Source: a phage
Sequence record: PZ452591.1
Direction: 5' to 3' (one strand)
Length of the DNA: 64,000 nucleotides
Of this stretch, positions 3,501-58,816 are shown in pieces. Numbering within the stretch: the stretch's first letter is position 1; each line of letters starts with the position of its first letter. Below the pieces are notes generated by a model, which worked only from the letters and a program-made list of their open reading frames with translations, did not search any database and was not told the DNA's origin. The position numbers were made by a program, and so were the translations under genes.

Positions 3501-4021
3501 GTTGATCCCAGCTCCTTACTTTCAACGTTTTTAACTAATTTGACAGAAACTAATTCAGCATCTTGAGTAATCATTACCGGACCTTCTTCATACTCTTCAA
3601 GATATTCTAGAGCTTTCTTTTTAGCTTCTTCCTTCGTATCAGTTTGAGCATAGATATAAAACATACAACCAGTAATACCTACTACTTTCCACTTAATTTC
3701 TTTATCAGTTTTAATTTCAAATTTACTGACAGAATCATCTTTTTGAACTTCTTCGAAAAAAGAATATTCTAACATATAAGCAATTGAAAATAACGGGCTA
3801 TCTTTATAGCATTCACCCATTACATCAACAGCTTTATACCAGCAGTCATCAATTTCGCGTTTAATGCTAATAACATTTTTCGCAAGATCTATTTTTACTT
3901 TAAATGAATTTTCCCCAATAAACTGGGCAATTCGTTTATTAGCCCCGCAAGTTTCATTAAAAATATCTTTATACCCAGTTTTAAAGCGATAAACCTTATC
4001 TTCTTCAAACCATTCGCTCAT
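3491..4021 (-). CDS. hypothetical protein, 176 aa
   Basis: ORF track; ATG at 4019-4021. Confidence 0.6.
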   Translation of the reverse strand: MSEWFEEDKVYRFKTGYKDIFNETCGANKRIAQFIGENSFKVKIDLAKNVISIKREIDDCWYKAVDVMGECYKDSPLFSIAYMLEYSFFEEVQKDDSVSKFEIKTDKEIKWKVVGITGCMFYIYAQTDTKEEAKKKALEYLEEYEEGPVMITQDAELVSVKLVKNVESKELGSTCC

Positions 4022-4083
4022 TTCAATTTCCTCATTTGTTTTGGTAGAGCTATAATATCACAACTCTACCGTAAAGTAAACCA

Positions 4084-4359
4084 TTAAATCGCTTTGAATT
4101 CCGCAGTTTGAGATTCAAAGCGAATGTCGCCTTTGATAGCTAGCTCAGCATCAAGACCGAATACAACAATGATATGCGCGGAACCTGGATACAACGTAAT
4201 GGCAATAGAATCCACCTGGTCTGGAAGCAAAGTGTTCAATACATGAGTCACTTGAGCGTGGATTCGAAGCTCAGCTGCGTTATCAAGTTTTTCAAACATA
4301 TTATTAGCGATAATTTGGCTAAACACTACTTCTACGATTTTAGAGTAAGTCGGAAACAT
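4084..4359 (-). CDS. hypothetical protein, about 91 aa
   Basis: track ORF starts at TTG 4389; first in-frame ATG at 4357-4359, adjacent to upstream gene stop. Confidence 0.5.
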   Translation of the reverse strand: MFPTYSKIVEVVFSQIIANNMFEKLDNAAELRIHAQVTHVLNTLLPDQVDSIAITLYPGSAHIIVVFGLDAELAIKGDIRFESQTAEFKAI

Positions 4360-4361
4360 AT

Positions 4362-4562
4362 TTACCTCGCATAATTTTCTTCGAGCCAATCAATAACATC
4401 CAAAGCGTTATCAAAAGTTGCGCCATCTACTTTGTCTTCTGTTTCATAATCAAGAACATCTAGGCCTACTCTTCCGTCAACAATAGGCCATAGACAAAAT
4501 AGATATTTCTTTTCTTTTTCAATTTTATCACAAAGACGATAAATCTTTTCTAGGTTATTCAT
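4362..4562 (-). CDS. hypothetical protein, 66 aa
   Basis: ORF track; ATG at 4560-4562. Confidence 0.5.
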   Translation of the reverse strand: MNNLEKIYRLCDKIEKEKKYLFCLWPIVDGRVGLDVLDYETEDKVDGATFDNALDVIDWLEENYAR

Positions 4563-4751
4563 ACGTTTTCCATGGTAAAGGCAGTTTAGTTTTCTTTACT
4601 ACTAGTTCAACATCAGGATTCTTTTCTCTTAATTTAAGGCATTCCTCCCATGCTCTATTTTCACTAGTAAATACACAAAATTGCCCATTACTAGTACCAA
4701 CTAAACCGCTATTTACAATAACAATAGCCCAAGTTTCATGGTGCCAAGCCA

Positions 4752-53924: not shown

Positions 53925-54443
53925 TTAATAGCCTCGATCTTGACGTGCGAAATTTTCGGCATTTTTCAGATAATAAAGTTTAAAGATTTCTTCAGCTGAC
54001 ATTCCAAGAGCAATAAATTTATTCATGAAAAAGTGAAATTGGTCAATCAGTTCAAATTTAATTTCAAGCTGATCTTCGGGAGATAAATCTTGAATTTTCT
54101 TGGATTGCATTTCAGAATAACGTTTCTTCCAAGGTTTCCATACAGCAGAAGCTTCTTTTTCACCATTACTCATACCACCAAGAGAAGTATATAGCTCGCG
54201 AGTTTCGTCTGCGATATAATCGTCTTGGTTTCGCAGCCAAGCAAGAACTTCTCCTGCGGTTTCAAGTGAATCAGGATGACGATTTGTTTCTGGCTTATCA
54301 TTAGCCAAACGAATCTGTAAAGACCGCTGCATATCAAGCATAACCTGCAATGGGTCTTTTTCATCACCGAGAATATCCCGGTATTCATTTTGAGCTTTAT
54401 CAACACCTTCGATCAAATGAGCGCATTCATTAAAGTGAGCCAT
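53925..54443 (-). CDS. 56: dCTPase/dUTPase gp56, 172 aa
   Basis: start set at ATG 54441-54443 (MAHFNECAHLIEGVDKAQNEY...) with AAAGGAAAA Shine-Dalgarno; the track ORF extension begins at GTG and covers the promoter. Confidence 0.85.
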   Translation of the reverse strand: MAHFNECAHLIEGVDKAQNEYRDILGDEKDPLQVMLDMQRSLQIRLANDKPETNRHPDSLETAGEVLAWLRNQDDYIADETRELYTSLGGMSNGEKEASAVWKPWKKRYSEMQSKKIQDLSPEDQLEIKFELIDQFHFFMNKFIALGMSAEEIFKLYYLKNAENFARQDRGY

Positions 54444-54514: not shown

Positions 54515-54715
54515 ATGGTACAAAAATTAATGGCACTTGTTGATGCCATAAAAGGTAATAAGAAACGTATAGCTTTTACTATTTCTGCTATGGTAGGAAT
54601 TTTACTCTGGAACTTTATTTTATCACCTGTTGCAATTGCTCATGGTGTTAATATTCCAGTAGTTACTCTTGATACATTCGTAGATTTAGCATTTGCTTTA
54701 GTTGGGTTAATTTAA
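54515..54715 (+). CDS. small hydrophobic ORF, 66 aa, plus strand, in the 56-61 spacer
   Basis: ATG at 54515 with strong AAGGAGG Shine-Dalgarno 4 nt upstream; two predicted transmembrane segments; opposite strand to all neighbours. Confidence 0.3.
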   Translation: MVQKLMALVDAIKGNKKRIAFTISAMVGILLWNFILSPVAIAHGVNIPVVTLDTFVDLAFALVGLI

Positions 54716-55740
54716 ATCTTAGCATATTTAGATAGCCGCATTTTAGCCATCAACCCCTGTGCAATATTATTTTTCATATATTCCATAATTTGTTCAGTGG
54801 TTGCACCTTCCTTTCTAATCATATCATTAACATCTTTTGATTTCCAGGGAGATTTATCCCAAAACATAACCCTTTCTCCTGCATCAACTAATTTAGTCAT
54901 TCGCTTAATAGTGTCAGGGTGACGAGGTTCATTATCTAAGACCCACACACGTCTATCTTTAAATGGAACAACTTCTAGGTCTAATTGACCACCCGTAATA
55001 GCTATACCATTTTCAATAAAAAGTGAATCTATAGGTCCTTCTAGAACATATACATCACCATCTTTAACTCGTTCTACTCCATAGATTTTTGTTGCCTCAG
55101 GATAAGCTTTGATGGTGATATATTTTTGAGGAGCATCTTTCTTTAATGCACGCCCTTGAAAAGACTCAGCTTTTCCATTAGCATTATAAATTGGAATAAC
55201 AAGACGAGGCTCAGGTATTTCCTTTTTATATGTTCCCGGTGCTATACTATTAACTAATTTAGGCCATTCAGTTGTAAACCAAAGATATTTCCATTTATCC
55301 TTTGGAATACAACGAGCTTTTACGTATTTTATAATTGGATGGTCTTCCGCCAGTTTATCTAATCTAACACATGACGGAAGAGATTTAATTATTTTCTTCT
55401 CAGGTTGTTTAGGAAGTTCTTTAAGTTTTTCTACTGGACGACTTTTACCTTTTTCTTTTCTTATTTCAAAGATATACTCACGATATAAATCAGGTTCAAA
55501 CTCCTTTAAATATATTCCGATTGGTGCATGATAGTTACAGTTATAACAATGAATATTTCCTTCATTATTATCACCATAATACCATCCACGGGCTTTATTT
55601 TGGTCGGTTTTTGAATCTCCACACACTGGGCATCTAAACCGCAATTTAAAAGTTGAACTATTATTTACTTGTGTGAATTTAGGTAAATGAGCTAATGCAC
55701 GGTATGCAAACTCATTATCAATCCAAGGTATTGATGACAT
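54712..55740 (-). CDS. 61: DNA primase gp61, 342 aa
   Basis: ATG at 55738-55740; zinc-ribbon CPVCGDSKTD...CYNCNYH and Toprim region; matches recalled T4 gp61. Confidence 0.92.
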   Translation of the reverse strand: MSSIPWIDNEFAYRALAHLPKFTQVNNSSTFKLRFRCPVCGDSKTDQNKARGWYYGDNNEGNIHCYNCNYHAPIGIYLKEFEPDLYREYIFEIRKEKGKSRPVEKLKELPKQPEKKIIKSLPSCVRLDKLAEDHPIIKYVKARCIPKDKWKYLWFTTEWPKLVNSIAPGTYKKEIPEPRLVIPIYNANGKAESFQGRALKKDAPQKYITIKAYPEATKIYGVERVKDGDVYVLEGPIDSLFIENGIAITGGQLDLEVVPFKDRRVWVLDNEPRHPDTIKRMTKLVDAGERVMFWDKSPWKSKDVNDMIRKEGATTEQIMEYMKNNIAQGLMAKMRLSKYAKI

Positions 55741-55743
55741 TTT

Positions 55744-55907
55744 TACTCTTCTTTTTCTTTAGATTCCTCTTTTTTCTTTTTAGGAATCTGTTCAGGACCT
55801 TTATTTACTACAGCGCCTGATGTTGTTCCAGTAGAGATATTTTCAGGATTACCACCTGAATCTCCAGCGACCATATCTTCTTTGATAAATTCTTTATATG
55901 TTTTCAT
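55744..55907 (-). CDS. small charged protein, 54 aa (61.1 position)
   Basis: ATG at 55905-55907 with GAGG Shine-Dalgarno; not in ORF track (<60 aa). Confidence 0.4.
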
Positions 55908-55908
55908 A

Positions 55909-56535
55909 TTAACCTCTATTCATAAAAGCATTAAAAATTTGGTCATCAATAGAAACATTTACTTTAGACTGTTTTTCAGATGGCAATTCATATCCACATA
56001 TTACAATTTTATAATCAATATCAAAATACACAGAAGCAATATGATTAATGATATTTTCAGTAAAGTCTAAATCAACATCAATATCTTTTTGACCAAAGCC
56101 CAAAGGATAAATAATGCGAGTAATTCGATTATCTTTAACAAAGATTCCACCGACATACTCTGTACTGCGTTTAAAGTCTACACGCCGACGAAATGAAAAA
56201 TATTCAGGCTCTTTATGAGCTCGGCTCATAGGGCACAACGAATAACTAGAATAAGAGATGTCAAATCCTACGCCTTCAATATGAACTAAATTGTCATGAT
56301 TAAACCAATTATAATCATATGCCAAGTCCATTAGATTGTCATACGTGAAAGGCACCGGATTAACATCATTGGTCACAAGCATATAATTAGCAACTGCTAT
56401 AATTTCATTATTTTTAACGAATACAAACCGTGATTGATGCGAATGGCCTGGACCTGCGTTTTCACGATTAATGATATAACACTGGGCACCTTTATATTTG
56501 TACGTGTCTTTACACTTGTGCATTTGATAAAGCAT
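55909..56535 (-). CDS. hypothetical protein, 208 aa (61.2 position)
   Basis: ATG at 56533-56535; assignment to the 61.2 slot is by gene order only. Confidence 0.55.
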   Translation of the reverse strand: MLYQMHKCKDTYKYKGAQCYIINRENAGPGHSHQSRFVFVKNNEIIAVANYMLVTNDVNPVPFTYDNLMDLAYDYNWFNHDNLVHIEGVGFDISYSSYSLCPMSRAHKEPEYFSFRRRVDFKRSTEYVGGIFVKDNRITRIIYPLGFGQKDIDVDLDFTENIINHIASVYFDIDYKIVICGYELPSEKQSKVNVSIDDQIFNAFMNRG

Positions 56536-56828
56536 TATTCACCTACCACTTCAGCGATGATATTTTTATTATTAAAGTTTTTATCGCAATACAGAACATA
56601 ATTATACTGCATTACACCACCAGATTTAAGCTGTTTTTGCACTTCAGCTTTCATTTCAGGGCGATCGCGCTCAACGATATTCATAATATCTGCTTCAATT
56701 TGAGTTTCAACCTCAGTCTGATCTGCAGTCATAGACCATTCGCACAAATCTTTATCATAACCTGCCATAGCAGGCTGAGCAGCACAAGAAGCTAAAGCAA
56801 AAATTGTAGCAAAGATAAATTTTTTCAT
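56535..56828 (-). CDS. sp: Spackle (periplasmic superinfection exclusion / lysozyme inhibitor), 97 aa
   Basis: ATG at 56826-56828; cleavable signal peptide MKKFIFATIFALASCAAQPAMA; position 61.3. Confidence 0.8.
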   Translation of the reverse strand: MKKFIFATIFALASCAAQPAMAGYDKDLCEWSMTADQTEVETQIEADIMNIVERDRPEMKAEVQKQLKSGGVMQYNYVLYCDKNFNNKNIIAEVVGE

Positions 56829-56888
56829 GATAATCTCCTCAGTAGTTTATGTTTATATAGTATCTCAATTTCCAACAAAAGTAAACAG

Positions 56889-57185
56889 TTATTTTAAAAC
56901 TTCTGCATAATCACATGTTACAAACTGTTTCTCTAGCTTGACGATTTTACGAAAGTATCTTTTACATTGACGAATCTGCCGCTTCGTAGGACGTACAGCA
57001 AACTTAATAAATTCCACTCGACCAAATGGAGGGCTTTCTTCTGCTGGAATATCTAACACCAATTCCCACGTATCTGCAATAAGTGCTTTGAATTGTGTAT
57101 TTTTCCTGACGTTATACGGAGTAGGTTTAAATAAAACAATATGCATATTATCCTCGGCAATCCACTTCACATACTTTCTTGTCAT
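56889..57185 (-). CDS. hypothetical protein, about 98 aa (61.4 position)
   Basis: in-frame ATG at 57183-57185; track ORF starts one codon upstream at TTG. Confidence 0.55.
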   Translation of the reverse strand: MTRKYVKWIAEDNMHIVLFKPTPYNVRKNTQFKALIADTWELVLDIPAEESPPFGRVEFIKFAVRPTKRQIRQCKRYFRKIVKLEKQFVTCDYAEVLK

Positions 57186-57330
57186 CAATGAAAGCTTTAA
57201 CTAATGCTTTATTAACTTCAGCATATTGAGTAGTAGCCCATTGAACGTCATCTTTCATCATTGTGGTTTCTTTAGTAAACATGCTTTCATTCTTAAACCA
57301 CCCCATAAAAACTACCTTTACCAATTCCAT
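57148..57330 (-). CDS. dmd: Dmd (inhibitor of host RnlA/LsoA toxin endoribonucleases), 60 aa
   Basis: ATG at 57328-57330; 60-aa ORF directly upstream of gene 41 (61.5 position). Confidence 0.7.
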   Translation of the reverse strand: MELVKVVFMGWFKNESMFTKETTMMKDDVQWATTQYAEVNKALVKAFIDDKKVCEVDCRG

Positions 57331-57388
57331 AACAATCTCCTCATTTAACCAACAAGACTACTATACCATAGTCTTGTCAGCTTGTAAA

Positions 57389-58816
57389 CTAAAATTTTAA
57401 TTCATTCGCCAAAGCATCTAACTGAGCTCGAGTGGATTCATTTCTTTGATAGAGATTCTGCTCAGCTTGAATCTGCTGTGAACCTGCTACTTCACTCACT
57501 TCAGTTGGAGTAGAATCTTGTTCAATTTCTACCCATTTCTGATTTCCCTTTTGAACGCCCATCAAAAACTTATTCCATTTGTTCTTATCGCCATATCGTG
57601 ATTTGATTTGCTTAATGAGTTGTTGTTCAGCAGCTGCTAACTCCTCGGTTTCAATGACCGCAAGCATAAAATCGGCTGTTGCTGGAAGACCGGCAGATTC
57701 TGCAATATCGCTCATGTTAACATCGGAAGAGTCCCAAGCTTGTTTACCAACCTGTGCTGCAGTCCAAAGAACAGTTTCGGTTTCAACAGCCAGAGCACGC
57801 AATTCCTCTGCAATAGCTTTAACAGTTGTGTAACTATTTTCTGAATAAACTCTAATGCGGCAAGATTTACAAATACCTAGATAGTCGACAATAATGATTG
57901 TTGGAACAAAATTCTTCTTGAGCTTCAATTCGTTTAAAAGTGATCGAAATGTATTAGCATCTGCTCCACCAGTAGGATACTGTTTAACGATTAAACGACC
58001 AAGAGTAGATTTCTCACGCCATTTTTCCATTTTTCCTTTATACTCAGCGTAAGAAATATGCCCATCATCTATGTCATCAAGAGAAACATCAAGCATATTA
58101 GCATCAATACGTTTAGCACAGACTTCTTCTGCCATTTCCATGGAAATGTAAAGAACATTATGTCCGAGCTGTAAATAATCTGCTGCCAATGAACACAATC
58201 CTAATGACTTACCAACGTTAACACCAGCCATTAAAACGTTCAGTGTTCCAGTCTCAGCTCCGCCTTTAGTAATTTTGTTTAGAATTCTGAGTTTAAATGG
58301 AACCTTACGAGCTTTATTCATATAAGATAGCCAACGTGCTTCGTAGTCATCCATCCAATCATGACCAACATAGCTATCAAATGAAATTGATAATGCTTGC
58401 CGCATGATGTCAGGAATAGCACCAACATCCGGCATTTTCTTATTTCGTTTTTCCGGAGGAAGCTCAGCATTAGTTTGAATTTCGATTATTTTAGACGTAG
58501 CATTAAACATCGCCCTTTGCTGAACATATTTTTCTGTTTCTTTTACTAACCAACTGTGGTCTTCCGGAGAATCAGCCAGTTTTGAAATAAGTGTTTTTAC
58601 ACCAGAATATTCTGTTTCAGTAAATGAACTATTTTCTAATGCAACATTTAACGCATTAATAGATGGAACGCTATGATACTCATTGACATGAGATTTAATT
58701 AATTTGAATGTATTTTTAGCTGGACCACTTTCAAAATATTCTGAATCCATATATGGCCAAACTTTTGAAAAATAAGCTTGATCAAATATGAGATGAGAAA
58801 GAATAATTTCTACCAC
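57389..58816 (-). CDS. 41: replicative helicase gp41, 475 aa
   Basis: apparent GTG start at 58814-58816 with AAGGAG Shine-Dalgarno; Walker A GVNVGKS; matches recalled T4 gp41. Confidence 0.93.
   Translation of the reverse strand: MVEIILSHLIFDQAYFSKVWPYMDSEYFESGPAKNTFKLIKSHVNEYHSVPSINALNVALENSSFTETEYSGVKTLISKLADSPEDHSWLVKETEKYVQQRAMFNATSKIIEIQTNAELPPEKRNKKMPDVGAIPDIMRQALSISFDSYVGHDWMDDYEARWLSYMNKARKVPFKLRILNKITKGGAETGTLNVLMAGVNVGKSLGLCSLAADYLQLGHNVLYISMEMAEEVCAKRIDANMLDVSLDDIDDGHISYAEYKGKMEKWREKSTLGRLIVKQYPTGGADANTFRSLLNELKLKKNFVPTIIIVDYLGICKSCRIRVYSENSYTTVKAIAEELRALAVETETVLWTAAQVGKQAWDSSDVNMSDIAESAGLPATADFMLAVIETEELAAAEQQLIKQIKSRYGDKNKWNKFLMGVQKGNQKWVEIEQDSTPTEVSEVAGSQQIQAEQNLYQRNESTRAQLDALANELKF

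Follow-up and report, generated by a model that had tools for sequence, protein, structure and literature searches.

The closest described relative of the locus analysed here is the interval between the primase gene 61 and the helicase gene 41 of bacteriophage T4, and the island that it holds is already known: the same locus was named a possible "anti-TA island" in T4 by Srikant et al. 2022 (PMC9391042). In T4, dmd and 61.4 are co-transcribed from an early promoter located upstream of dmd (PMC9391042), while 61.2, sp, 61.4 and dmd are all early in both RNA and protein (PMC9697503 supplement). Dmd is a phage antitoxin, which binds and inhibits the RNase toxins RnlA and LsoA (PMC9391042, PMC5308261 and reference 61 of PMC9697503). 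The 61.4 product, TifA (85 aa), is a protein inhibitor of ToxN, the endoribonuclease of the type III toxIN system; ToxN binding and inhibition were demonstrated for the TifA homologues of T4, T2, T6 and RB69, and the native levels of TifA overcome a chromosomal toxIN, but not a plasmid-borne one (PMC9391042). Gene 61.2 is adfA (anti-DarT factor A), which encodes an inhibitor of DarT toxins (PMC9391042, PMC11257639). Finally, sp (61.3) encodes the superinfection-exclusion protein Spackle, which acts in the periplasm, where it inhibits the tail lysozyme gp5 of incoming T-even phages, and which has been described in a Spackle-gp5 complex (PMC7677548).

The DNA that we analysed is a stretch of 64,000 nucleotides from a phage (sequence record PZ452591.1), hereafter termed the window. 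It contains five minus-strand ORFs, close-packed at positions 55743-57330 between gene 61 (primase, 342 aa; 54712-55740) and gene 41 (helicase, 475 aa; 57389-58816). The ORF list gives them, all on the minus strand, as 55743-55907 (54 aa), 55909-56535 (208 aa), 56535-56828 (97 aa), 56889-57188 (99 aa when read from a TTG) and 57148-57330 (60 aa). The junctions between the genes consist of gaps of 1-2 nt or an overlap of 1 nt, and there are only two intergenic spacers, of 60 nt (56829-56888) and 58 nt (57331-57388). The gene order 61, 61.1, 61.2, sp, 61.4, dmd, 41 is the same as in the T4 reference annotation NC_000866. This 2.1-kb stretch has matches in 630 phage records, and its DNA identity over the full length is 98.5% with Escherichia phage vB_EcoM_G8 and 98.0-98.1% with T4 strains. 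By its sequence, this DNA corresponds to the 41-61 interval of a Tequatrovirus, i.e., a T4-like phage, and the presence of five tightly packed ORFs in the 61-to-41 interval, as claimed in the original prediction, is borne out by the ORF list, the T4 gene order and the 98% DNA identity.

Compared with the T4 interval (PMC9391042), the locus is alike in its genes, their order and orientation, its promoter hexamers and 98% of its DNA. It differs by eight amino-acid substitutions spread over the five proteins of the window (two in 61.1, three in AdfA and one each in Spackle, TifA and Dmd) and by a single base in the 58-nt spacer, the 60-nt spacer showing no base different from T4. The two phages also differ beyond gene 61, where the window has a 66-aa plus-strand ORF (similar to RB69ORF029w) beside gene 61, whereas T4 dam is absent there. 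The homology search of each ORF, which had been recommended as a check, was run and gave Pfam families to all of them but 61.1 (AdfA, T4_Spackle, DUF7279 and Dmd); these four families were matched far over their cut-offs, with concordant PHROGs. We found no close PDB relative for AdfA, TifA or 61.1, no RNA family in an Rfam search of the region and no intrinsic terminator-like site in a scan of it.

In RB69, a Mosigvirus and the source of the AdfA R164H escape mutants, the segment from 61.1 to 41 likewise holds adfA, sp, tifA and dmd, arranged as in the window. In addition to these genes, RB69 has imm, imm.1 and four ORFs without a known function. Its AdfA shows 69% identity and carries the Arg of the non-binding allele at the key position; its TifA is shorter and reportedly more potent (PMC9391042); and its 61.1 belongs to the long form, with a frameshift that splits it in the reference sequence. 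The full content of this larger interval is 61.1, two small ORFs, adfA, sp, imm, imm.1, tifA, dmd and two more ORFs. In Aeromonas phage Aeh1, the genes 41, 61.1 and 61 are contiguous, without the island, and in Acinetobacter phage Konradin 61.1 lies directly upstream of gene 61, with unrelated small genes before 61.1. In T2, the slot of adfA is occupied by a 118-aa ORF, to which the C-terminal half of the AdfA profile matched at 32.5 bits. Together, the layouts of Aeh1, Konradin, RB69 and T2 place the variable cargo between 41 and 61.1, with the pair 61.1-61 as the conserved edge; gene 61.1 is therefore widely conserved beside the primase gene and does not belong to the island cargo.

We propose, with a probability of about 90%, that dmd, tifA, sp and adfA form a four-gene accessory insertion of early genes between gene 41 (helicase) and the conserved 61.1-61 pair, that each of the small proteins encoded there would act independently, binding and thereby blocking one enemy protein, and that 61.1 stands outside this cargo. 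The activities of Dmd, TifA, AdfA and Spackle in the present phage are predicted, being carried over from the T4 and RB69 experiments through identities of 97-99%. The original prediction had spoken of a counter-defence cluster. The term would suit Dmd, TifA and AdfA, but neither Spackle, which acts in superinfection exclusion, nor 61.1, the conserved primase-gene neighbour.

The dmd-tifA operon is preceded by an early-type promoter (57360-57388, minus strand), composed of TTTACA, a 17-nt spacer and TATAGT, with TG ahead of the second hexamer. In a scan of positions 55400-57700 with a threshold of 9/12 hexamer matches, this site (10/12) was among the better promoter-like sites of the minus strand and the sole one with the TG. 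It sits in the 58-nt spacer between 41 and dmd, and the single base of this spacer that differs from T4 falls outside the hexamers. The first gene, dmd (61.5; 57148-57330, minus strand), encodes a 60-aa protein that is identical to that of T4 at 59 of its 60 positions (I22T). This protein matches Pfam PF17587 over its full length (153.5 bits, E 1.8e-45), as well as the solved RnlA-bound antitoxin (PDB 5hy3_B, 'Antitoxin Dmd', E 9.6e-37), so the 60-aa ORF had been rightly named Dmd. By analogy with T4, it would stand in for the unstable host antitoxins and inhibit the RNases RnlA and LsoA.

The second gene, tifA (61.4; 56889-57146, minus strand), starts with an ATG at 57146, 1 nt past the dmd stop codon. 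Its product (85 aa) is identical to T4 gp61.4 except for one residue (84/85; I83V), it matches Pfam DUF7279 (72.7 bits for a cut-off of 24.5, E 2.3e-20) and phrog_2375 (E 2.4e-38), and its translation shows a central basic cluster, RPTKRQIRQCKRYFRKIVK. As in T4, this protein would inhibit ToxN, the RNase of toxIN. The longer frame of 99 aa beginning with TTG, which had been counted as a '98-aa' ORF, was rejected as the 61.4 product, as it overlaps dmd by 41 nt; it is also ruled out by the T4 annotation and by the experiments, which used the 85-aa ATG frame (PMC9391042). Two ORFs had been regarded as uncharacterised, namely this one and the 54-aa ORF. For the former the view has to be given up, since it corresponds to the published ToxN inhibitor; for the latter, 61.1, it stands, no function having been published.

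Downstream of tifA, the 60-nt tifA-sp spacer (56829-56888, minus strand) harbours the ribosome-binding site of sp (GAGGAG) and a weak promoter-like element, GTTTAC...TACTAT, which falls below the 9/12 scan threshold and whose role as a promoter we only infer. The next gene, sp (56535-56828, minus strand), encodes a protein of 97 aa with a signal peptide, which is identical to T4 Spackle at 96 of 97 positions (K53E) and matches Pfam PF25676 (T4_Spackle; 151.1 bits, E 1.3e-44) and, over its residues 1-97, PDB 6x6o (E 8e-62). The alignment with the mature chain 7cn6 begins at residue 23, past the hydrophobic leader ...CAAQPAMA, i.e., the protein consists of a signal peptide followed by the Spackle domain. 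The presence of Spackle with its signal peptide had been anticipated from the DNA, and both the Pfam and the PDB matches uphold it. By analogy with T4, Spackle is a protein that blocks superinfecting phages, not a counter-defence protein: it would be exported to the periplasm and, when another T-even phage infects the cell, inhibit the gp5 lysozyme of this second phage.

The gene in the 61.2 slot, adfA (55909-56535, minus strand), encodes a protein of 208 aa that is identical to T4 gp61.2 at 205 positions (the substitutions being L62P, H175Y and P190S) and that matches the Pfam family AdfA (PF23813) from end to end (protein 1-208 on profile 1-211; 450.9 bits for a cut-off of 27, E 6.4e-136). 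Hence, the 208-aa ORF encodes the counterpart of T4 gp61.2, and the link of this gene with an ADP-ribosylating toxin-antitoxin system, mentioned in the original prediction, was correct: the toxin is the DarT of DarTG (PMC11257639, PMC9391042). The AdfA of RB69 binds DarT1 only after the R164H mutation, the binding having been shown by two-hybrid assay, and the T4-type phages naturally possess a His at this position (PMC11257639). In the window, His165 of AdfA aligns with RB69 Arg164, the residue that decides on DarT1 binding, which implies that this phage has an allele of the binding type. Among 16 cluster representatives the corresponding residue is His in 14, Asn in one and Arg in one. As to the three substitutions, Pro62 and Ser190 are the common states among the 16 cluster representatives, and Tyr175, which lies ten residues off the specificity residue His165, occurs in none of the 15 others, which have His or Glu there.

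From the T4 and RB69 results, we predict that the AdfA of the window is a DarT1-binding factor, which would act by binding DarT1, a DNA ADP-ribosyltransferase. DarTG2 is not countered by AdfA (PMC11257639), and in view of this result and of the silent adfA deletion described below, DarT1 is a putative natural target of the T4-type AdfA. A rival explanation deserves attention, namely that AdfA is not directed against DarT1 in practice but targets another DarT homologue or an unrelated host protein, the DarT1 activity of plasmid-expressed T4 AdfA being a cross-reaction. We regard it as a real possibility, with a less than even chance of being right, on the following grounds. First, deletion of adfA from T4 gave no phenotype on the single DarTG1 system tested, and neither did it in a strain also lacking adfN; this silence was attributed to AdfN (gp30.3) doing the job, AdfN being the factor that actually protects T4 against DarTG1 (PMC11257639). 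Second, the authors of this work suggested that T4 AdfA is adapted to a different DarT homologue, writing that the T4 variant 'likely neutralis[es] some other DarT homolog' (PMC11257639). Third, the allele of the window carries the unusual H175Y substitution. Against this explanation, T4 AdfA provided in trans restored the growth of RB69 on DarTG1 cells, the binding of RB69 AdfA R164H to DarT1 was seen in the two-hybrid assay (PMC11257639), and the AdfA of the window retains His165. It had also been stated beforehand that deletion mutants showing no host-dependent phenotype would speak against a counter-defence role, and in T4 the deletion of adfA is indeed silent on the DarTG1 tested (PMC11257639), which weakens the claim in part.

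The last of the five genes, 61.1 (55743-55907, minus strand), ends with a stop codon located 2 nt from the start of gene 61. Its product of 54 aa comprises a leader (MKTYKEFIKE) closed by a protease-type site (I-K-E), a copy of the N-fist/N-arm region of gp23, and a tail of Lys and Glu residues. Neither 61.1 nor its long forms had a match in Pfam. The leader is identical at eight of ten positions to that of the T4 internal proteins IPII and IPIII (MKTYQEFIAE), the T4 allele of 61.1 begins with MKTFKEF, i.e., the first seven residues of IPI, and T4 61.1 and ipI share their first 22 nt. In six-frame translations of the window together with T4 and RB69 loci totalling about 38 kb (about 100 kb in all), the motif MK[TS][YF].[ED][FV] was found at 61.1 and at the three IP genes only. 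Internal proteins carry a capsid targeting sequence (CTS), which is cleaved (PMC8442874), and the sites of the T4 protease gp21 include ITE and LTE (PMC5694885). Like an internal protein, 61.1 has an N-terminal CTS-type leader ending in a gp21-type site, (L/I)-x-E, and its Glu10 occupies the same place as the cleavage site of IPII and IPIII; unlike the T4 internal proteins, most relatives of 61.1 carry a helical domain of about 100 aa instead of the leader.

The approximately 35 residues that follow the leader are homologous to residues 66-101 of gp23 (58-101 when the junction is included), which, in the terms of PMC9958956, make up the N-fist and the first part of the N-arm of the mature capsid protein. 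This homology was found in three ways. First, a PDB search with the single 61.1 sequence matched gp23 with an E-value of 0.0085. Second, a profile built from 16 relatives and run against the PDB matched it with an E-value of 1.1e-5. Third, hhalign of the 61.1 family against gp23 1-151 gave a probability of 97% and an E-value of 5.7e-11 over 41 columns. In the ungapped 61.1-gp23 alignment, 16 of 36 residues are identical and Glu10 of 61.1 falls on Glu65 of gp23, which is the gp21 cleavage site; the 61.1 peptide includes the sequence DMVAGDSGGNPENIS(T/I)GTTSGAVVNK. In contrast to gp23, 61.1 is devoid of the entire HK97-fold body and ends in a Lys-rich tail. Some automatic annotations designate 61.1 as a "major capsid domain-containing protein" or a "putative head morphogenesis protein". 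Our literature search found no interpretation of the 61.1-gp23 similarity, though annotation pipelines saw it, and no paper on the function of 61.1.

The 61.1 family comprises 51 representatives at 50% identity and 297 at 90% identity, and it is found in 609 phage records with hosts ranging from Aeromonas to Sinorhizobium. Its members are mostly 130-165 aa long and consist of an N-domain of about 100 aa, a junction, the module MVAGDSGG..NIASG.TSG.V..GP and a tail rich in Lys and Arg. At the junction, 165 of 170 members have L, I, M, F or V at position -3 from the module, and 156 of 170 have Glu right before it; as read from the sequences, this pattern agrees with the known T4 sites of gp21, ITE and LTE among them. 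In the AlphaFold model of a member of 155 aa, the helices of the N-domain are predicted with confidence (pLDDT 84-93) and the module corresponding to 61.1 is disordered; no fold match was found. From this comparison, the Tequatrovirus 61.1 looks like the C-terminal module of an ancestral gene, whose N-domain was swapped for the leader of an internal protein. In our reading, it is a shortened Tequatrovirus version of a gene found immediately upstream of gene 61 throughout the T4-like phages; its product, a peptide that is intrinsically disordered, reproduces the maturation junction and the N-fist of gp23 behind a leader of the internal-protein type.

As to what such a peptide might do, our best guess, which we put forward tentatively and from sequence features, is that 61.1 may be cut after Glu10 by the prohead protease gp21 and be associated with the head. 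A broader version of this proposal, which we hold to be doubtful, is that the family as a whole may be an overlooked substrate of the prohead protease, i.e., a mimic of the gp23 junction and N-fist that would be delivered to the prohead by the leader in the T4-type phages, or by the helical domain of about 100 aa in most others, and released at the hydrophobic-x-Glu site. Several observations count against a role in the head. On the strand of 61.1, no late promoter (TATAAATA) was found from 55.9 to 64 kb, i.e., within 8 kb upstream of the gene. In T4, 61.1 is transcribed early, and its protein escaped detection (PMC9697503 supplement). The cleaved peptide of 44 aa would be acidic, with a pI of 5.0, as compared with 9.0 for IPI* and 9.6 for IPII*; hence, the other mark of an internal protein, being made at prohead assembly and basic when mature, does not apply to 61.1. 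Furthermore, our literature search found no paper placing 61.1 in heads or proheads, or describing its cleavage by gp21.

The early expression of 61.1 may also be read in another way, in which 61.1 would serve replication or gene expression, either by working with the primase or the helicase or because its translation couples that of gene 61, the capsid-like sequence being an evolutionary leftover. The order 41 ... 61.1-61 is kept in distant T4-like phages, gene 61 starts 2 nt past the 61.1 stop codon, and 61.1 is transcribed early, along with the replication genes. Nevertheless, we find this explanation unlikely. About 20 of the 54 positions of 61.1 are invariant across 14-16 relatives (63-96% identity) and the hydrophobic-x-Glu junction is present in more than 90% of the 170 members; this strong constraint on the peptide means that a pure translational coupling does not explain 61.1. 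Besides, the PDB, profile and Pfam searches detected no similarity between the 61.1 module and any replication protein.

We consider it very unlikely that 61.1 is a fifth counter-defence gene, i.e., a decoy that would mimic the N-terminal part of gp23 to blunt a gp23-triggered host sensor, for instance of the Lit/Gol type. The core of Gol, which we take to lie at about residues 93-122 of gp23, starts about where the segment shared with 61.1 ends, so that most of it is past this segment. In addition, 61.1 is kept beside gene 61 in phages that infect Aeromonas, Acinetobacter, Klebsiella, Vibrio and other hosts, including the island-less Aeh1, unlike a host-specific cargo, and no experiment ties it to any defence. 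In favour of the decoy are the homology of the 61.1 module to gp23 58-101, the expression of 61.1 early, before gp23, its position adjoining the anti-TA genes, the triggering of the Lit protease by gp23 through the Gol region (PMC3014915), and the description of the other genes of the region as 'attractive anti-toxin candidates' (PMC9391042). Our tentative preference goes to 61.1 as a substrate of the prohead protease.

In summary, the phage studied here is endowed with the anti-toxin set of T4 (Dmd, TifA and AdfA) plus Spackle, which helps to predict the toxin-antitoxin defences that it would overcome; the island itself adds nothing to known biology. Gene 61.1, one of the roughly 100 genes of T4 whose function is unknown and for decades a 'hypothetical' one, combines two head-assembly signals with a copy of the gp23 N-fist. 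If our proposal is true, the cleaved 61.1 peptide could fill N-fist binding sites of the capsid or be ejected together with the DNA, and a virus head that ranks among the best studied would have a further conserved component in 61.1.

Within the AdfA (anti-DarT factor A) protein encoded in the window (55909-56535, minus strand), residue 175 is a tyrosine that lies 10 residues away from His165, the residue deciding DarT1 binding. This position is occupied by a histidine in T4 and 13 other AdfA cluster representatives, and by a glutamate in the RB69-type representative. Phage T2 has been described in the literature as devoid of adfA. The adfA slot of the T2 locus (AP018813, 710-1066, minus strand) contains a 118-aa ORF that matched the C-terminal half of the Pfam AdfA profile (positions 113-211) with a score of 32.5 bits, i.e. 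above the 27-bit cut-off of this profile. The T2 ORF is possibly an AdfA that has been shortened or has diverged.

At its flank beyond gene 61, the window resembles RB69 and not T4. The end of gene 61 is adjoined by an oppositely oriented ORF (54515-54715, plus strand) encoding a 66-aa hydrophobic protein, to which RB69ORF029w is 52% identical. The dCTPase gene 56 (approximately 53925-54443) comes next, and thus the dam gene of T4 is not found at that place in the window. In RB69 (NC_004928), the superinfection-immunity genes imm and imm.1 (4012-4690, minus strand) are located between sp and tifA, thereby placing Imm and Spackle, both superinfection-exclusion functions, next to each other, whereas in T4 imm occurs at another locus. 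In the distant T4-like Acinetobacter phage Konradin, a gene annotated as a "putative ADP-ribosyl transferase" (556-873 of the locus, plus strand) belongs to the variable block that precedes 61.1, where its neighbours are small hypothetical genes.

In the window, the 61.1 gene (55743-55907, minus strand) encodes a protein with an internal-protein type, capsid-targeting leader (MKTYKEFIKE), a conserved protease-type hydrophobic-x-Glu site, and a copy of residues 66-101 of the major capsid protein gp23 (the N-fist and the start of the N-arm). In most T4-like phages 61.1 occurs as a longer form of 130-165 aa, immediately 5' of the primase gene. RB69ORF032c (63 aa) and RB69 "61.1" (92 aa; together 2318-2784 of NC_004928, minus strand) are the two halves of a single 155-aa long-form 61.1 gene, which is interrupted in the RB69 reference sequence by a frameshift; Escherichia phage JM10 (P0092) carries the 155-aa form unbroken. 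Furthermore, two large viral proteins from BFVD, A0A411BBR2 (672 aa) and A0A1B1IT15 (913 aa), aligned over about 135 columns to the AlphaFold model of a 155-aa long-form 61.1, with 33-36% identity. This model-based alignment suggests that both proteins comprise a long-form 61.1 domain fused to a larger partner.
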